A stretch of 64,000 nt of DNA from assembly GCA_963815115.1 (NCBI GenBank), contig CAWFFN010000008.1, positions 256,001 to 320,000 on the forward strand, written 5' to 3'. The position numbers and the translations under genes were made by a program. This stretch comes from an uncultured delta proteobacterium (GTDB lineage: Bacteria; Desulfobacterota; Binatia; DP-6). The notes beneath the pieces were generated by a model that saw only the letters and a list, made by a program, of their open reading frames with translations, was not told the DNA's origin and searched no databases. Below, piece after piece: positions 3,010 through 53,879 of the stretch (positions are counted from its first letter, which is position 1; every line of letters starts with the position of its first letter).

Positions 3010-4440
3010 CTAGTCGGCGTAGCCGAGCGCGCGCAGGCGCGCGCGCTGGGCGTCGTCGAGCGGCACGGTCTCCGCCGTCGTGCTGGCGCTCGCAGCAAAC
3101 ACGCCGAGTCGCTCCGCGAGCCGGGCGCGCAACACCGGCGTCTCCGCGGCGAGGGCCGGAGGGTCCTGGCGTGTCTCCCGGGGATCGTGGCGTAGATCGT
3201 AGGCCTCGGGGCGGCCGCCGAGCGGCCCCATGAGGACTTTGAGGCCGTCGTGGAGCAGCCCCGCCGCATGGCGCCTGGTGTCGACGCCGCGCCCGGTGGG
3301 CAGCAGCTCGAGGACGACGTCGTGCGACGAGCCTGGGGTGGGGGCGAGGTCGCCGAGGAGCGACCGCCCCTCGAACCGCGGCTCCGGGGGCAGCCCGACC
3401 ACGTCCAGGACCGTCGGGGCGATGTCCACGATCGAGACCGGGTCGGTGACGACGCGACCTGCGGGCACACCGGTCCCCACCAGGAGGAGGGGGATGCGAA
3501 CGCTCTCCTCGTAGAGCGTCGTGCCGTGCATCAACCCGCCATGCTCGCGGAACTCCTCGCCGTGATCCCCGACCACGACGATGGTCGCGTGATCGAGCAC
3601 GCCCCGCGCGCGCAGGCGCCGGAACAGGCGGGCGAGTCGCGCGTCGAGACCGGCCACCTCGGCGTCGTAGAGCGAGGCCAGGTATGCCACCTCGTCCTCG
3701 GAGAGCTCACTCGTGCGGCCGCCCTCGACGAGCGTCGCGCTGATCGCCGCTTCGCTCGACCCGGGGGGCGGTGGGCCGACCCGGCCACGACGCGCCGTTG
3801 CGGGCGGGTCGTAGGGTGCGTGGGGTTCCATGAAATGGAGGTAGAGGAAGAGCGGCCGCCTCGTCCACCGACTCCAGGCTCCTGGCACCATCCTCCGGTC
3901 GTAGAAGCGGATGGTGTCCTGCGCGATCCGGTGCGCACGCACCTTCCGAGCCGACACGTGCGGGAACCAGGCGTCGAATCCCTGGCCGAACCCGAGCGCC
4001 CCGAGCAGGCGGAAGTTGCCGACCATCCCGACGCAACGGTAGCCCGACGCGTGCAGCCGCTCGGCGAGCGTGACCTCCTCGTCCGCCAGCCGGGAATCGA
4101 AGCGCGCCACACGGTGCTGGGAGGGATAGCGCGACGTGAAGAGGCTCGCCACGGCGGGGTTCGTCCACGACGAGGTCGAGTAGGCGTTCGTGAAGAGCGT
4201 GCCGGATGCCGCCAGCGAGTCGAGAAACGGCGTGAGGCCGGGCGTGCCGCCGGCGGCGCTCAGGCGGTCGGCGCGCAGCGTGTCGACGAGCACGACGACG
4301 ATGTCGGGGGAGCGACGTCGGCAGCCGCCGAGAATGAGCACCGCCACGATGGCGAGCCCCAGTGCCCTGCGACGCGAGCAGCGAGGGGACCGGGCCGGTG
4401 CACCGGAGTGCCCGCCACCGTTCTCGGGAGGGCGCGCCAT
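3010..4440 (-). CDS. Sulfatase-like (alkaline phosphatase superfamily) lipoprotein, Thr-type nucleophile
   Basis: DTLRAD, SSWTNPAVASLFTSRYP, HFMEPHAPY, GDHGEEF, C-terminal LRALGY; lipobox-like ILGGC. Confidence 0.85.
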   Translation of the reverse strand: MARPPENGGGHSGAPARSPRCSRRRALGLAIVAVLILGGCRRRSPDIVVVLVDTLRADRLSAAGGTPGLTPFLDSLAASGTLFTNAYSTSSWTNPAVASLFTSRYPSQHRVARFDSRLADEEVTLAERLHASGYRCVGMVGNFRLLGALGFGQGFDAWFPHVSARKVRAHRIAQDTIRFYDRRMVPGAWSRWTRRPLFLYLHFMEPHAPYDPPATARRGRVGPPPPGSSEAAISATLVEGGRTSELSEDEVAYLASLYDAEVAGLDARLARLFRRLRARGVLDHATIVVVGDHGEEFREHGGLMHGTTLYEESVRIPLLLVGTGVPAGRVVTDPVSIVDIAPTVLDVVGLPPEPRFEGRSLLGDLAPTPGSSHDVVLELLPTGRGVDTRRHAAGLLHDGLKVLMGPLGGRPEAYDLRHDPRETRQDPPALAAETPVLRARLAERLGVFAASASTTAETVPLDDAQRARLRALGYAD

Positions 4441-48074: not shown

Positions 48075-48670
48075 CGCGGCGTGGCGGCGCGGGCCGGGAG
48101 GCGGCCGAGGAAGTTGCCGAGGAGTCGCTTCCCCTCCAGCGTCAGGATCGATTCGGGGTGGAACTGCACGCCCTCCACGAAGGCGCTCCGGTGCCGCACG
48201 CCCATGATCTCGCCCTCGGCCGTCCACGCGGTCCGCCGCAGCACCGCGGGCAGCGTGCCGGGGTCGATCACCAGGGAATGATAGCGGGTCGCGTCGAAGG
48301 GATCGGGCAGGCCGGCGAAGACGCCCGTGTCGTCGTGATGGATGGGCGAGGTCTTGCCGTGCATGATGCGCGGCGCGCGTACCACGTCGCCGCCGAAGGC
48401 GGCGCCGATCGCCTGGTGGCCCAGGCAGACCCCGAGGATCGGGACCTCGCCGGCGAACCGCTGGATCAGCGGCACCGAGATGCCGGCCTCGCGCGGAGTG
48501 CAGGGCCCCGGCGAGATGACGATGCCGTCCGGCGCCAGCTCCACCACGTCGTCGAGGCCGACGGCGTCGTTGCGCCGTACCTCGACCTCCGCTCCGAGCT
48601 CGGCGAGATACTGCACCAGGTTGTAGGTGAAGGAGTCGTAGTTGTCGATCATGAGCAGCCGCGGCGGCAT
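48071..48670 (-). CDS. trpG: Anthranilate synthase glutamine amidotransferase component II
   Basis: [33 protein letters not shown]. Confidence 0.93.
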
Positions 48671-50197
48671 CACAGGCCTTCCGCCAGCCGCACCGCATTC
48701 ACCACCGCCCGCGCCTTGTTCACGCACTCGCGATGCTCGGCCTCGGGATCGGAGTCGGCGACGATCCCGGCACCCGCCTGGATGAAGGCGCGGCCGTCGC
48801 GCATGAGCACGGAGCGGATGGCGATCGCCGTGTCCATCGCGCCGCCGTAGCCGAAGTAGCCCACCGCCCCGCCGTAGATGCCCCGGCGCACCGGCTCGAG
48901 CTCCTCGATGATCTCCATGGCGCGGATCTTGGGCGCGCCGCTCAGCGTACCGGCCGGGAACGTCGCGCGGAAGGCGTCGAAGCAGTCCCGTCCCGGCTCG
49001 AGCCGCCCGCGCACGTTCGACACCAGGTGCATCACGTGCGAGTAGCGCTCGATCACGAAGCGCTCGGTGACCTCCACCGTCCCGACCTCGGCCACGCGTC
49101 CCACGTCGTTGCGCCCGAGATCGAGCAGCATGACGTGCTCGGCGAGCTCCTTCGGATCGGAGGCGCAGCTCGTCGGCGAGCGCGGCGTCGTCGCGCTCGC
49201 CGGTGCCGCGCGGCCGCGTGCCGGCGATCGGCCGGACCACCAGCTCGCCGCCCTCCACCCGCGCCATCACCTCGGGCGACGCGCCTGCCAGGGCGTGCGC
49301 GCCGAGCGCGAGGTAGAACATGTACGGCGACGGGTTCACGGTGCGCAGGCAGCGGTAGACGTTGAAGGGCGCGGCGGCCAGCGGCATCTCGAAGCGCTGC
49401 GCCAGCACCACCTGGATGACGTCGCCGGCACGGATGTACTCCTTGGCGCGCGCCACCATGCCCTGGTACGCCTCCGGGGTGAGATTGGCGCGCACCTCTT
49501 CGGGCGCGCCACCGCGCGCGACGGGTGCGACCGGTCCGACCGCTGGCGTTCCCAGCCGGTCGACCAGCTCGTCGATGCGGGCGACCGCGGCGTCGTAGGC
49601 GTCGTCCGGCGAGACGCCGTCTCCCACGTGCGCGTGCGACACCACGCGGATGGTCTGCGCCACGTTGTCGAACACCAGCACGCTCTGGACCAGGAGCATG
49701 CAGAGATCCGGCAGAAGCAGGTCGTCCTCTGCCAGGGCCGGCAGCCGTTCCAGGCTGCGCACCACGTCGTACCCGACGTAGCCGACCGCCCCGCCCACGA
49801 AGCGCGGCAGCCCCGACACGGGCACCGCACGATAGGCGGCGAGGAGCCGCTTCAGCTCGCCGAGCGGGTCGTCGGTCGCCCAGCGCTCGACGCCTCCACC
49901 GGGCGTCTCGAGCTCGACCTCGCGCCCGCGCACGCGGAGCACCCGTGCGGGCTCCGTCCCGAGAAAGGTGAAGCGGCCCCAGCGCTCGCCGCCCTGCACG
50001 CTTTCGAGCAGGAACCCGTAGGGCCCGCGGCGGATCTTCAGGAAGGCCGAGACCGGGGTTTCCAGATCGGCGAGGATGTCCCGGCTGAGGGGGATCAGGT
50101 TCCCTGCCTCGACGAGCCCCCGGAAGTCCTCGCGTGGCGGCCACACGGCCCCGGCGCGCCGTCCCCAGGCGGGCGCTCTCGGGAGCGCTGCGCTCAT
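48670..50197 (-). CDS. trpE: Anthranilate synthase component I, split by a +1 frameshift at ~49162 (probable sequence error)
   Basis: LETPVS, LLES, NPSPYM, GASPE, PIAGT in one frame; [38 protein letters not shown] in the next. Confidence 0.9.
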
Positions 50198-51036
50198 TGG
50201 GACGCCACGTAGGCCCGGGAGACGCCCTCCCGATCGCGCAACCGCCGCATCACCTGCTCGGCCTGCTCCGCGCTGGCGTAGCGTCCCACGCGCAGGCGGT
50301 ACCACGTGCCGCCGTCGCGCGGGACCGCTTGCACGGTGGCGTCGAAGCCCCGCCGGGCGAGGTTGGCGCGCATCGCCTCGGCCTCGGAGCGGTCGCGGGT
50401 CGAGGTGGCCTCGACGGTGAAGGCTCCACTCCTGGGTGGCGACGTCGTCGCGCGGGCCGCCGTCGTTCGGTCCTTCGCCGTCGGCACCGTCCCGGTCTTC
50501 GCGCCGCTCGCGGCGGGAGACCTGGCGGGGGCCGCGGCCCCCGGCTTCGACGGCCGCGCCGTCGCGGATCTCGCCCGCGGCGCCGTCGCGGGCCCGGCCG
50601 CAGTCGGCTTCGTCGGGACCGCCGCTCCCGGCTTCGCCGGCGGGGCCGTCCTGGACGCCACCTGCACCTTTCCGGTCGCGGCGCCCTGCGGCGCACCGCT
50701 GGCCTTCGGCGAGGCCGCCGGCAGCGCCGGCTTCTGCTCGGCCGGCCGGATCGGACCGGCCTTGGACCGCGCGGGGGTTGCGTCCGTGTGCCCCGTCGGC
50801 ACCAGCGTGTCGTAGAAGGTGAACTCGTCGCCGCTCTTCGGCCGCTGCCCCTCCGGCGGCGGCTGCGTGGTCACCGGCAGCCGGACGCCGCGGTCCTCCC
50901 CCGCGGGGACGCGCTCCTGGATCCGATTGCCGGTATAGAAGCCGATGCCGTAGACCACCGCGCAGCTCACCATCCAGACCCCGACGAGGATGGCGCGCTC
51001 GACCAGCCGCAACCCCGGACGCGGATTCTCTCCCAT
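50194..51036 (-). CDS. SPOR-domain cell division protein (FtsN/DedD-like)
   Basis: N-terminal TM, FTFYDTL, Pro/Ala/Lys linker, C-terminal [13 protein letters not shown] motif. Confidence 0.85.
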
Positions 51037-51046
51037 CTTCCCCTCC

Positions 51047-52228
51047 TCACATCCGCCCGGCCGCTGCGACGCCGCACAACCGGAGGGCATCGGACAGCAC
51101 GTGCTGCGCGCATGCCCCCAGCGCGAGCCGCGCCTGGGTCAGGACACCGTCCGCCGTGAGCATGCGGTGGCGGTTATAGTAGCGATGGACCGCCGCGGCG
51201 AGCGTCAGAGCGTGGCCGGCGACGGCGTGCGGCTCGAGCGCGTGCGCCGCCCGCTCGACCACGTCGGGCCACACGACCACCTGGCGCAGCACCTCGGCCT
51301 CCGCCTCGCCGAGTGGTGCGAGATCGGGACGGGGCTCGCGGGCGACGCCGGCGATTGCGGCCTCGCGCAGCACGCCGGCGAGGCGGGCATGCGCAAGCTG
51401 GACACGGCCGAGCGGGTTGTCCGCATCGCGGCGCTTCGCCTGCTCCAGATCCACGTCGAGCGCCCTGCCTGATCGCCCCAGCAGGAGAAAGAACCGCCCC
51501 GCATCGTCGCCGATCTCTCGCACGACGTCCGGCCAGCCGACGTCGGATGAGCGCACGATCTCCCCGCCCCTCGCGAGCCCGACCGGAGCCGCCGGGACGA
51601 GCCGGAGCACTGCGGGATCGACGGCGGCGCGCAGCCGATCTGCAGAAGCGCCGTCATCCACCTCGACGACCGCGGCGAGAAGGTCGACGCCCTCCGTGGC
51701 GGCCGAATCCGCGGCGTCCTCGGCGGGCGCGGTCGAGCGCTCGCGCGGGTCGACGGCCCAGCCGCTGGCCTCGAGAAGGCGCGCCACGCTTCCGGCGAGC
51801 ACCGCGCAGCGCGCCTGCGCCAGGCTCGGCCCCTCCTCCCGTGCTGCGACCTGCAGGACACGGGCCCGGCGGCCGCGCCCGACAGAGCTGCGCCCGTAGG
51901 CGCGGCCGGCCGTCACCGCCTCGTCGAGCAGCATGTGCCAAAAGGCCGCGCCGAACCGGAAGTTCACGAATCCCGGCCCTGCCACCTCGACGCCGCTCAG
52001 CCATCGGCAAGGGTCGCGTAGGCGGTCGAGGAGGACCTCCGCGATGTCCTGCGGCGGTCGCCCCATCTCGCGGGCGAGCATCATCGCCACGTCGCAGGTC
52101 AGGTCCCCGAAGGCCGGGTCGGCGGGCTCGTGCACCGCGTAGGCGGGCACGCTGCGGACCCGGAGCAGTCCCCCCTCGATGGCGTCGGTCAGCGCTTCCC
52201 GGACGAGCGCGTCAACGTGCGATCGCAC
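51047..52228 (-). CDS. Arginyl-tRNA synthetase-like protein lacking catalytic motifs (N-terminal Add-1 and DALR domains retained); start GTG 52228 or ATG 52276
   Basis: FGDL...A, EVAGPGFVNF (Add-1); EIGDDAGRFFLL, LDVDLEQAK, NP...VQLAHAR, EPH, HRYYN, QARLAL, L.LCGV (anticodon domain); HIGH and KMSK absent; ~390 aa versus ~550-580 typical. Confidence 0.75.
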   Translation of the reverse strand: MRSHVDALVREALTDAIEGGLLRVRSVPAYAVHEPADPAFGDLTCDVAMMLAREMGRPPQDIAEVLLDRLRDPCRWLSGVEVAGPGFVNFRFGAAFWHMLLDEAVTAGRAYGRSSVGRGRRARVLQVAAREEGPSLAQARCAVLAGSVARLLEASGWAVDPRERSTAPAEDAADSAATEGVDLLAAVVEVDDGASADRLRAAVDPAVLRLVPAAPVGLARGGEIVRSSDVGWPDVVREIGDDAGRFFLLLGRSGRALDVDLEQAKRRDADNPLGRVQLAHARLAGVLREAAIAGVAREPRPDLAPLGEAEAEVLRQVVVWPDVVERAAHALEPHAVAGHALTLAAAVHRYYNRHRMLTADGVLTQARLALGACAQHVLSDALRLCGVAAAGRM

Positions 52229-52280
52229 GCCAAAGCCAGTTCCCGGCGGCGCGCGTGTCGGAGACCCCGGGGGCATCCAT
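52212..52280 (-). CDS. Putative leaderless Trp-containing leader peptide MDAPGVSDTRAAGNWLWRAIAR
   Basis: ATG 7 nt after the -10 box; mostly GC3 codons; W-L-W-R near the C-terminus; upstream of the trp-containing run. Confidence 0.35.
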   Translation of the reverse strand: MDAPGVSDTRAAGNWLWRAIAR

Positions 52281-52287
52281 GGGGCGC

Positions 52288-52316
52288 GTTGTACCGGCGC
52301 CCCCGGGCGCCGTCAA
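52288..52316 (-). promoter_or_regulatory. sigma70 promoter for the argS-like/SPOR/trp run
   Basis: TTGACG-N17-TACAAC on the minus strand in the rplQ-argS-like gap. Confidence 0.55.
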
Positions 52317-52343
52317 CCGGCGCACGCGCGCGCGCGCCGCGCC

Positions 52344-52811
52344 TCACCCCGCGGCGGCGCGCCGGCGCGGCGTCTCGGTCTTTCGGGTGTCCTTGCCCGT
52401 GTCCTTGCGGCGCGCCGGCTTCTTCTTCTTGCCGGTCCCGTCCGTGCCCTGACCCGGGCGGTCCACCAGCTCGACCAGCGAGAGCGCCGCCGCGTCCCCG
52501 GGGCGCACCCCGAGCTTGACCACCCGGACATAGCCTCCCGCACGTCCCGCATAACGCGGAGCGAGCTCGGCAAAGAGCTTCCGTACCACGCTCGCCTGTT
52601 GCACCAGCGCGGCGGCCCGGCGGCGCGCGTGCAGCGTGCCGTCCTTGCCGAGCGTGATCATGCGATCACCCCAGCGCTTGAGCTCCTTGGCCTTCCCATC
52701 CGTCGTCCGCACCGCCTCGTGCTCGAGGAGCGCCGTCACCAGGTTGCGCAGCAGGGCGCGACGGTGTGCCGGTGAGCGGCCGAGCTTCTTCCCTGCGACC
52801 CGATGGCGCAT
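52344..52811 (-). CDS. rplQ: 50S ribosomal protein L17
   Basis: [29 protein letters not shown]. Confidence 0.97.
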
Positions 52812-52814
52812 GGC

Positions 52815-53879
<1,065 letters not shown>

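Follow-up and report, generated by a model that had tools for sequence, protein, structure and literature searches.

In this study, we have analysed a gene on the minus strand, at positions 51047..52276 of a 64,000-nucleotide window (the whole stretch examined, positions 256,001 to 320,000 of contig CAWFFN010000008.1) from an uncultured delta proteobacterium (assembly GCA_963815115.1), and we show that it is a catalytically dead, conserved and selected descendant of the native arginyl-tRNA synthetase (ArgRS) of its lineage, the charging being done by a foreign ArgRS encoded elsewhere in the genome. The protein, referred to here as the remnant, has lost the catalytic core, and its role is probably a non-enzymatic one. 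Its frame is uninterrupted over 409 codons, from ATG 52276 to a TGA stop (51049-51047 on the minus strand, i.e., 51047-51049), although the real start is probably GTG 52228, giving a protein of 393 residues, since relatives begin at that position (M/V-R/K-x-H-V-DALV); the gene caller's version (P0002) also has 393 residues. An earlier description of this DNA, the sequence-only reading, had noted an uninterrupted open reading frame (ORF) of about 390-410 codons in the usual argS-SPOR position, and the frame is found as described, with a SPOR-domain gene downstream. As the window DNA is 73-78% G+C and its ORF list holds many spurious long ORFs, an open frame alone is weak proof of a gene; support therefore comes from homology, from selection tests and from conservation in other assemblies.

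Comparison with the enzyme locates the loss in the active site. Pfam recognizes the N-terminal Add-1 domain (Arg_tRNA_synt_N, residues 25-108, positions 51953..52204, E 1.2e-17) and the DALR anticodon-binding domain (DALR_1, residues 292-409, positions 51050..51403, E 2.2e-21, over all 117 model positions), and it gives no match in the remnant to the class I catalytic domain PF00750 (tRNA-synt_1d), an outcome in keeping with the sequence-only reading. When aligned with the nearest full-length ArgRS (550 residues, about 50% identical over the ends), the remnant is some 157 residues shorter (393 vs 550), within the 150-200 that the reading had reckoned missing from the Rossmann and insertion region. 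Most of these form a single block of about 150 residues between GWAVD and DLLAAVV, whose scar lies at roughly 51677-51748 on the minus strand, and about 5 more are missing at the KMSK-type loop. With this block went the YVND motif and the insertion domains, as well as the arginine-binding segment with its Tyr/Asp residues and the first part of the second Rossmann half. The stub of the Rossmann core, delimited by the same alignment (residues 136-250, positions 51527..51871), retains strand 1 and the first helix, yet HIGH is replaced: RVLQV...SLAQ (residues 139-154) stands where ArgRS has VEFVSANPTGPLHIGH, with SLAQ itself at 51815-51826. Likewise, GGEIVRSSD (residues 237-245, positions 51542-51568) stands where ArgRS has GGEPVRMGKRAG and is a shortened version of the full-enzyme loop GGEPVRMGKRAGEF. 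The losses of HIGH and KMSKS, both claimed before, are therefore real in the alignment, and the GADHHG motif is degenerate in the short form as well.

The residues that bind arginine appear to have gone with the rest. At 11 positions ahead of HIGH, where ArgRS has an acidic residue, the remnant has Leu, and this position is unconserved among short forms. According to excerpts of PMC3956977, the D118A and D317A substitutions in E. coli ArgRS abolish arginine binding; matched by alignment position, the D118 equivalent would be a Leu here and the D317 equivalent would fall within the deleted block. The TIGR00456 (argS) model scores the remnant at 131.7 bits, over the ends only, below the family cut-off of 261.65. 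A separate ArgRS core fragment is absent from the genome, where the sole other weak match covers 32 positions in an 827-codon frame, and a split enzyme was rejected in view of the lack of any other ArgRS-core match. Because PF00750, HIGH, the KMSK-type loop and the arginine-binding segment are gone, and no core piece is encoded elsewhere, the remnant, on this profile and alignment evidence, is unable to activate arginine or to act as an ArgRS.

The two ends have fared differently from the core and from each other. We compared 41 short with 36 full sequences column by column, counting a column as kept when the same residue is at least 90% conserved in both sets, and as lost when it is at least 90% conserved in full enzymes but below 60%, or a different residue, in short forms. 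Add-1 and the linker keep 14 of the ArgRS-conserved columns and lose 2, the core stub keeps 6 and loses 33, and the stem-contact fold together with DALR keeps 20 and loses 19. The sequence-only reading was right to centre the loss on the catalytic core; its further claim that both tRNA-binding ends are kept stands for Add-1, and for the presence of both Pfam domains, but does not extend to the stem-contact/DALR part, where about as many conserved columns have been lost as kept. The strings that it quoted were all found in the translation, namely FGDL (residues 56-59), GPGFVNF (residues 100-106, positions 51959-51979 on the minus strand), LEPH (347-350), HRYYNR (364-369) and ARLAL (382-386), with DNPLGRVQLAHARL at residues 286-299. 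Another eight columns (A23, C61, D62, V104, A161, L299, W336 and C389) are specific to the short form, being at least 90% conserved there and differing from full ArgRS.

Within Add-1, GPGFVNF holds the Phe-x-Asn motif that, as stated in excerpts of PMC3956977 and PMC8318970, reads A20 of tRNA-Arg in ArgRS. The Asn of GPGF-x-N (N105) is invariant in 77 of the 77 aligned short and full forms, and F103, two residues before it, in 38 of 38 short forms. HMMER aligns GFVNF of the window protein with GYLNF of T. thermophilus ArgRS (1iq0), and the DALR domain aligns with residues 470-629 of P. horikoshii ArgRS (2zue_A). GGA occupies D-loop positions 18-20 in each of the genome's five standard tRNA-Arg genes (ACG, CCG, UCG, CCU and UCU), all of which carry A20. 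Run on the whole genome, ARAGORN called 60 tRNAs; one tRNA-SeC and one tRNA-Pyl are among them, as are several 'tRNAs' of 90-97 nt lying in DNA that looks coding. In a genome so rich in G+C, the Pyl call and the long ones are probably false positives.

Locus order and phylogeny indicate where the remnant comes from. In the loci fetched from family f1, and in the metagenome loci reaching far enough, the order is rplQ, argS (full or short) and the SPOR gene, with rpoA preceding rplQ wherever the fetched DNA extends to it; a few short loci gave no rplQ match. In the window, the upstream neighbour is rplQ (ribosomal protein L17, 52344..52811, minus strand), which together with rpoA (52815-53879) anchors the conserved position, and sister genera carry a full native argS at this same rpoA-rplQ-[argS]-SPOR position. 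The short form was found in 8 of 41 related genomes (that of the window, those of all 4 other species of its genus and 1 species in each of 3 other genera), a full native-type argS in 28 (frames of 559-732 codons, one cut by a contig end) and only a second type of ArgRS in 3; the other 2 gave no match. In one same-genus genome (locus L006, G001:C19), the RpoA matches come in two pieces in different frames, at locus positions 3298-4213 and meeting at residue 195, which suggests an indel error or a frameshift in that assembly.

The two end domains, taken as about residues 6-124 and 240-398, were used for a maximum-likelihood (ML) tree with 118 rows: 53 of the 78 full-length database proteins, 14 full-length locus genes and 51 proteins that were short by length, the partial gene L032 and all second-type genes being left out. 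Fifty of the short forms make up one clade (support of 96 in the SH-like approximate likelihood-ratio test, SH-aLRT), nested inside the full-length ArgRS of the family, and the 51st, P0113, is a fragment of a full enzyme. As a hint of lineage, one full-length relative within the family clade carries the NCBI label Candidatus Binatia. The clade was recovered (23 rows, SH-aLRT 99) in a second tree, over residues 17-135 and 251-409, to which 13 further short proteins had been added. Since the short forms all fall in one clade, the deletion happened once, in the common ancestor of at least four genera. With its conserved position and its nesting among the family's full-length enzymes, the remnant is identified by synteny and phylogeny as the native argS itself, which degenerated at its original site; it is a positional ortholog and not a duplicate. 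The sequence-only reading had called it a paralog, a view contradicted by the locus order, by the tree and by the distribution of the second ArgRS.

The short form that the reading had proposed to look for in relatives was found there. Beyond the 8 of 41 genomes just mentioned, 7 of them other than the window's own, the architecture is present in 38 of the 120 database clusters listed (JGI, ENA and Logan), the window's own among them, and in 5 full or near-full metagenome contigs, and exact 151-256-nt pieces of the gene occur in public soil runs, in which no piece spans the whole gene. Among the runs listed for the gene, none was of RNA. The recurrence of the architecture in clusters, genomes and metagenome contigs contradicts a misassembly or collapsed deletion.

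A working argS was predicted to exist elsewhere, and it does. The window genome (6.89 Mb, 12 contigs, 100% complete, 2.98% contamination) carries on contig 9 a gene for a 581-residue ArgRS (G000:C9:1517106-1518848, L001) that scores 478.2 bits with TIGR00456, well over the cut-off given above. This enzyme has HVGH and an ADYQ (GDYQ-like) motif, matches the E. coli-type enzyme as characterized in excerpts of PMC8318970, and, in the DALR domain, shares just 35% identity with the remnant. Using it as a query (E <= 1e-20), second-type genes were detected in 11 of the 41 genomes at 44-100% identity, with 4 further weak cross-hits (29-31%) on native-type genes. The second type is present in all 8 short-form genomes and in none of the 28 with a full native argS; as these genomes are kin, the pattern amounts to one or two evolutionary events, not to 36 independent ones. 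One genome (G017) has the second type and no short form, its rplQ region being absent from the assembly too. The second-type enzymes of the window's genus fall together with Polyangia-labelled proteins (68-71% identity) and not with those of the sister genera (57-59%), which a long branch sets apart from them; more than one transfer, or a later replacement, is therefore likely from the tree, with a hint of transfer between phyla.

Two of the second-type genes are interrupted, either by assembly error or because they are broken: that of G004 (G004:C201:13137-14888) has one in-frame TGA, and that of G010 (G010:C10:1730408-1732104; genome 58% complete) is in three pieces, which, if the gene is truly broken, would leave the assembled part of this genome without any intact ArgRS. 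In the neighbouring family f8, locus L045 of genome G031 (G031:C1:3582359-3585721) runs from rplQ to a 94-residue membrane protein resembling the N-terminus of the SPOR protein and on to trpD; no argS, SPOR domain or trpE/G lies between rplQ and trpD there.

The remnant has been maintained as a protein. All 11 genomic or metagenomic copies are in a single frame without stops, matching the window protein, and the 31 distinct gap blocks in their alignment, in about 11 regions, are all in frame, which fits the earlier statement that the frame had been kept. Against the closest relative with available DNA (L028, 77% amino acid identity), the ratio of nonsynonymous to synonymous substitution rates (dN/dS) over the whole remnant is 0.32 by the NG86 method (bootstrap 0.24-0.43) and 0.16 by ML. 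For the separate parts, the NG86 and ML values are 0.20 and 0.076 in Add-1, 0.46 and 0.23 in the core stub, and 0.28 and 0.15 in the C-terminal part; as controls in the same pair, rpoA gives 0.065, rplQ 0.13 and the SPOR gene 0.42 (NG86). Differences from L028 amount to 0.26 per site at third codon positions and to 0.12 at first and second positions, third positions changing 2-3 times as often. In other pairs, the whole remnant gives 0.26-0.56 (NG86) or 0.10-0.30 (ML), the most diverged pairs being saturated at synonymous sites. Across pairs, Add-1 is lowest (ML 0.05-0.16) and the core stub highest (NG86 0.37-0.95, with 0.86-0.95 in some pairs; ML 0.23-0.53 in unsaturated pairs). Working ArgRS genes of the same lineage, in five native and four second-type pairs, have ML values of 0.03-0.10.

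By these codon comparisons, the remnant is under purifying selection as a protein, strongest in Add-1 and about 3-5 times weaker than in a working synthetase. Stops, frameshifts or a dN/dS near 1, the marks of a pseudogene, were not found, only the core stub approaching 1 in some pairs. The view that this is not random decay is thereby sustained: the short form shared among relatives and the dN/dS below 1 argue against both random decay and misassembly.

Structure prediction, which the sequence-only reading had suggested, returned a confident ArgRS-like fold. From a mixed alignment, AlphaFold2 obtained a predicted local distance difference test (pLDDT) score of 92.5 and a predicted template modelling (pTM) score of 0.90; when only short forms were used, the scores were 89.4 and 0.86 and the secondary structure was unchanged. 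Confidence was low (pLDDT 55-72) at the deletion scar only. The core stub is modelled as a small beta-alpha-beta domain. Foldseek matched ArgRS structures across the entire length of the model, with query-normalized TM-scores of 0.77 to P. horikoshii ArgRS with tRNA (2zue_A) and of 0.79 to E. coli ArgRS with tRNA (5b63_A). Both end domains are thus predicted to be placed as in the enzyme, separated by the beta-alpha-beta stub.

Taking sequence and model together, the explanation that we favour, if by a modest degree, is that the remnant is a non-catalytic protein that still docks tRNA-Arg, through A20 by means of Add-1 and less canonically by means of DALR, and that it works as a holder, presenter or sensor. 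In such a scheme, the native argS, still lying between rplQ and the SPOR gene, would have ceased to activate arginine once the genome possessed a second, distantly related ArgRS of the E. coli type. About 150 residues of catalytic and insertion sequence would have gone in a single ancestral deletion, followed by the decay of HIGH and of the KMSK-type loop. Left over would be Add-1 and, beyond a spacer formed by the stripped Rossmann stub, the stem-contact fold with DALR. Add-1 would read A20 of tRNA-Arg, the DALR end may hold the anticodon arm in a relaxed or altered manner, and the protein as a whole might hold, present or sense tRNA-Arg for another process.

Several observations weigh against this explanation. 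The 19 columns lost from the stem-contact fold and DALR include Y291, Q293 and Y294 (the Y.QY of YVQYAHAR), and the C-terminal Met is present in only about half of the short forms, for which reasons canonical anticodon reading may be impaired in them. The gene evolves fast. Its dN/dS is some 3-5 times as high as in the working synthetases, and between species of one genus the remnant is 41-47% identical, as against 75-77% for the working ArgRS and, over the aligned stretches, 84-93% for RpoA. The confident fold speaks for foldability and not for function, since AlphaFold was trained on ArgRS structures. In family f8, the genome G031 (2 contigs, 100% complete, second type only) has no argS remnant at its rplQ locus; the native gene has been lost outright and complete loss is therefore viable there. 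Finally, the SPOR gene (50194..51036, minus strand, from Pfam and the ORF list) has its likely start at ATG 51036, 10 nt past the stop of the remnant, with GGAGG directly behind the TGA, so that its ribosome-binding site lies at the stop codon, which is a reason to keep the upstream frame translated whatever the protein does.

These same points give substance to the strongest rival, which we nevertheless consider rather unlikely, namely that the remnant is a jobless and slowly decaying protein whose frame stays open and foldable because the SPOR gene depends on read-through transcription and translation. Polarity would be avoided and initiation coupled, while a misfolding translated product would be costly. 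The close SPOR start and the GGAGG at the stop codon fit this proposal, as do the retention of the argS-SPOR pair throughout the family, the fast evolution with its dN/dS raised over that of the working ArgRS, the near-neutral core stub of some pairs (up to 0.95) and the complete loss of the native gene in family f8. The avoidance of polarity, however, selects against stops and frameshifts only and not against amino-acid changes. Such a relic accounts for the open frame but not for the amino-acid-level constraint on Add-1, seen in its low dN/dS, in its 14 kept columns and in the A20-reading Asn, identical in 77 of 77 sequences. Moreover, coupling needs no 1.2-kb spacer, and the time in which the working second ArgRS has diverged to 57-59% identity between genera has not erased the remnant; such long persistence is unusual for a bacterial pseudogene, given the usual deletion bias.

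That the ArgRS scaffold has been repurposed beyond tRNA, either as a protein-protein or regulatory subunit in the manner of HisZ or as a binder of another RNA such as an mRNA leader, strikes us as improbable. The eight clade-specific conserved columns and the relaxation of the canonical anticodon-side positions would suit a new partner of this kind, but conservation in the protein is highest precisely in the Add-1 loop that reads A20, the gene neighbourhood points to no partner, being simply that of the ancestral argS, and an Rfam scan of the whole window gave 0 matches. An artefact of assembly, or a split or unusual synthetase still charging tRNA, is highly improbable, for although the assembly has at least one probable single-base indel, in trpE, the architecture recurs in independent clusters, genomes, contigs and soil reads, the catalytic motifs and arginine-binding segment are all absent, and the genome holds no complementary core fragment.

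As regards the surroundings of the gene, the stop of the remnant and the start of the SPOR-domain membrane protein follow each other at 51034-51052 in the order ATG-TGA-GGAGGGGAAG-ATG, an arrangement that resembles translational coupling; an alternative upstream start of the SPOR gene, ATG 51090, would overlap the remnant. A promoter and terminator scan of positions 50000-53000 returned 0 sites. Further downstream, trpE (anthranilate synthase component I, about 48670-50305) changes frame once, near GAGCTGCGCCTCCGATCC (49050-49260, minus strand), the N-terminal part being in one frame and the remainder in another, as a result of either a true frameshift or a single-base error in this assembly of long contigs.

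What becomes of an essential synthetase gene whose task has passed to a foreign copy can be seen here in a clean natural case. Unlike in the neighbouring family f8, the gene has not vanished: its tRNA-recognition ends have been selected over the long term and its active site has been excised. If the remnant binds tRNA-Arg, it would be a bacterial counterpart of the DALRD3-type adaptors and would provide a handle on the NrtL family, both of which are compared with it below. There is also a warning for annotation, as JGI labels many short forms 'arginyl-tRNA synthetase' though they are incapable of charging tRNA. On a wider scale, we raise tentatively, as a possibility that we would not bet on, that bacteria have repeatedly made a displaced ArgRS into a stand-alone reader of tRNA-Arg, composed of Add-1, a spacer and DALR, the clade described here, which probably belongs to Binatia-like soil bacteria, having an origin separate from those of NrtL and DALRD3. 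If this were true, the recognition scaffold of ArgRS would have a general, selectable, non-catalytic use, for example, in presenting tRNA-Arg to an enzyme or in sensing uncharged tRNA-Arg.

Among known systems, the direct ancestor of the remnant is canonical ArgRS (TIGR00456; PF03485, PF00750 and PF05746), of the type of about 550 residues found at the same locus in the sister genera. The two share the rplQ-argS-SPOR position, 50-55% identity over both end domains, Add-1 and DALR, and the overall fold. The remnant differs in having no PF00750, HIGH, KMSK-type loop or arginine-binding segment, in its shorter length and in its higher dN/dS. HisZ, a paralog of histidyl-tRNA synthetase that regulates HisG, is another case in which a synthetase scaffold has been kept after the loss of aminoacylation. 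HisZ, however, arose by duplication and its partner and function are known, whereas the remnant is the original gene, displaced by a xenolog.

A closer likeness is found in NrtL, the 'ArgS-related anticodon-binding protein' (NF045898), which also consists of Add-1 and DALR without a catalytic domain, in about 330-390 residues. NrtL clusters of the ESM Atlas (338-392 residues, Actinomycetota being the commonest phylum) are the nearest Atlas neighbours of the remnant (score 0.96). When scored with NF045898, however, the remnant reaches 127.2 bits (126.1 in the genome search) against a cut-off of 340, in an alignment with model positions 10-324 of 327, and it originated among the ArgRS genes of its own family, at the ancestral locus. 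Because the clade of the window protein nests in the ArgRS of its own family, in trees holding no bona fide NrtL sequence, the remnant looks like a separate origin, a parallel invention, and should not be filed as NrtL. A full-text search of a limited literature collection found no paper on bacterial NrtL or on truncated ArgRS.

The NF045898 cut-off is also missed by ten other short ArgRS-like proteins, of which the best reaches 224.5 bits. Outside the clade, six short ArgRS-like proteins of 337-453 residues (P0348, P0368, P0379, P0383, P0386 and P0247) came out of a profile search against 1.84 billion representatives; they branch in other parts of the ArgRS tree, all belong to single-member clusters and differ in their deletions. 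They could be independent remnants or broken genes; core loss therefore recurs, and persistence is shown only for the present clade. P0383, the short protein scoring best with the NrtL model, was rejected as an NrtL, its homologs showing it to be a core-deleted relative of the Saccharopolyspora-type ArgRS.

The functional precedent for a tRNA-Arg adaptor comes from eukaryotes. According to the abstract of PMC7237682, the eukaryotic DALR protein DALRD3 partners METTL2 to target arginine tRNAs for m3C modification. Like the remnant, DALRD3 is a non-catalytic, ArgRS-derived anticodon-domain protein, and it appears among the Atlas neighbours of the remnant at a score of 0.90. The differences are that it is eukaryotic, that its clusters are not listed with Add-1 and that the remnant has no indicated partner enzyme, with nothing pointing to shared ancestry past their origin in ArgRS. 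The conserved A20-reading Phe-x-Asn and the predicted ArgRS-like fold lend no more than indirect support to an adaptor mode resembling that of DALRD3, in which the remnant would bind tRNA-Arg and a partner enzyme.

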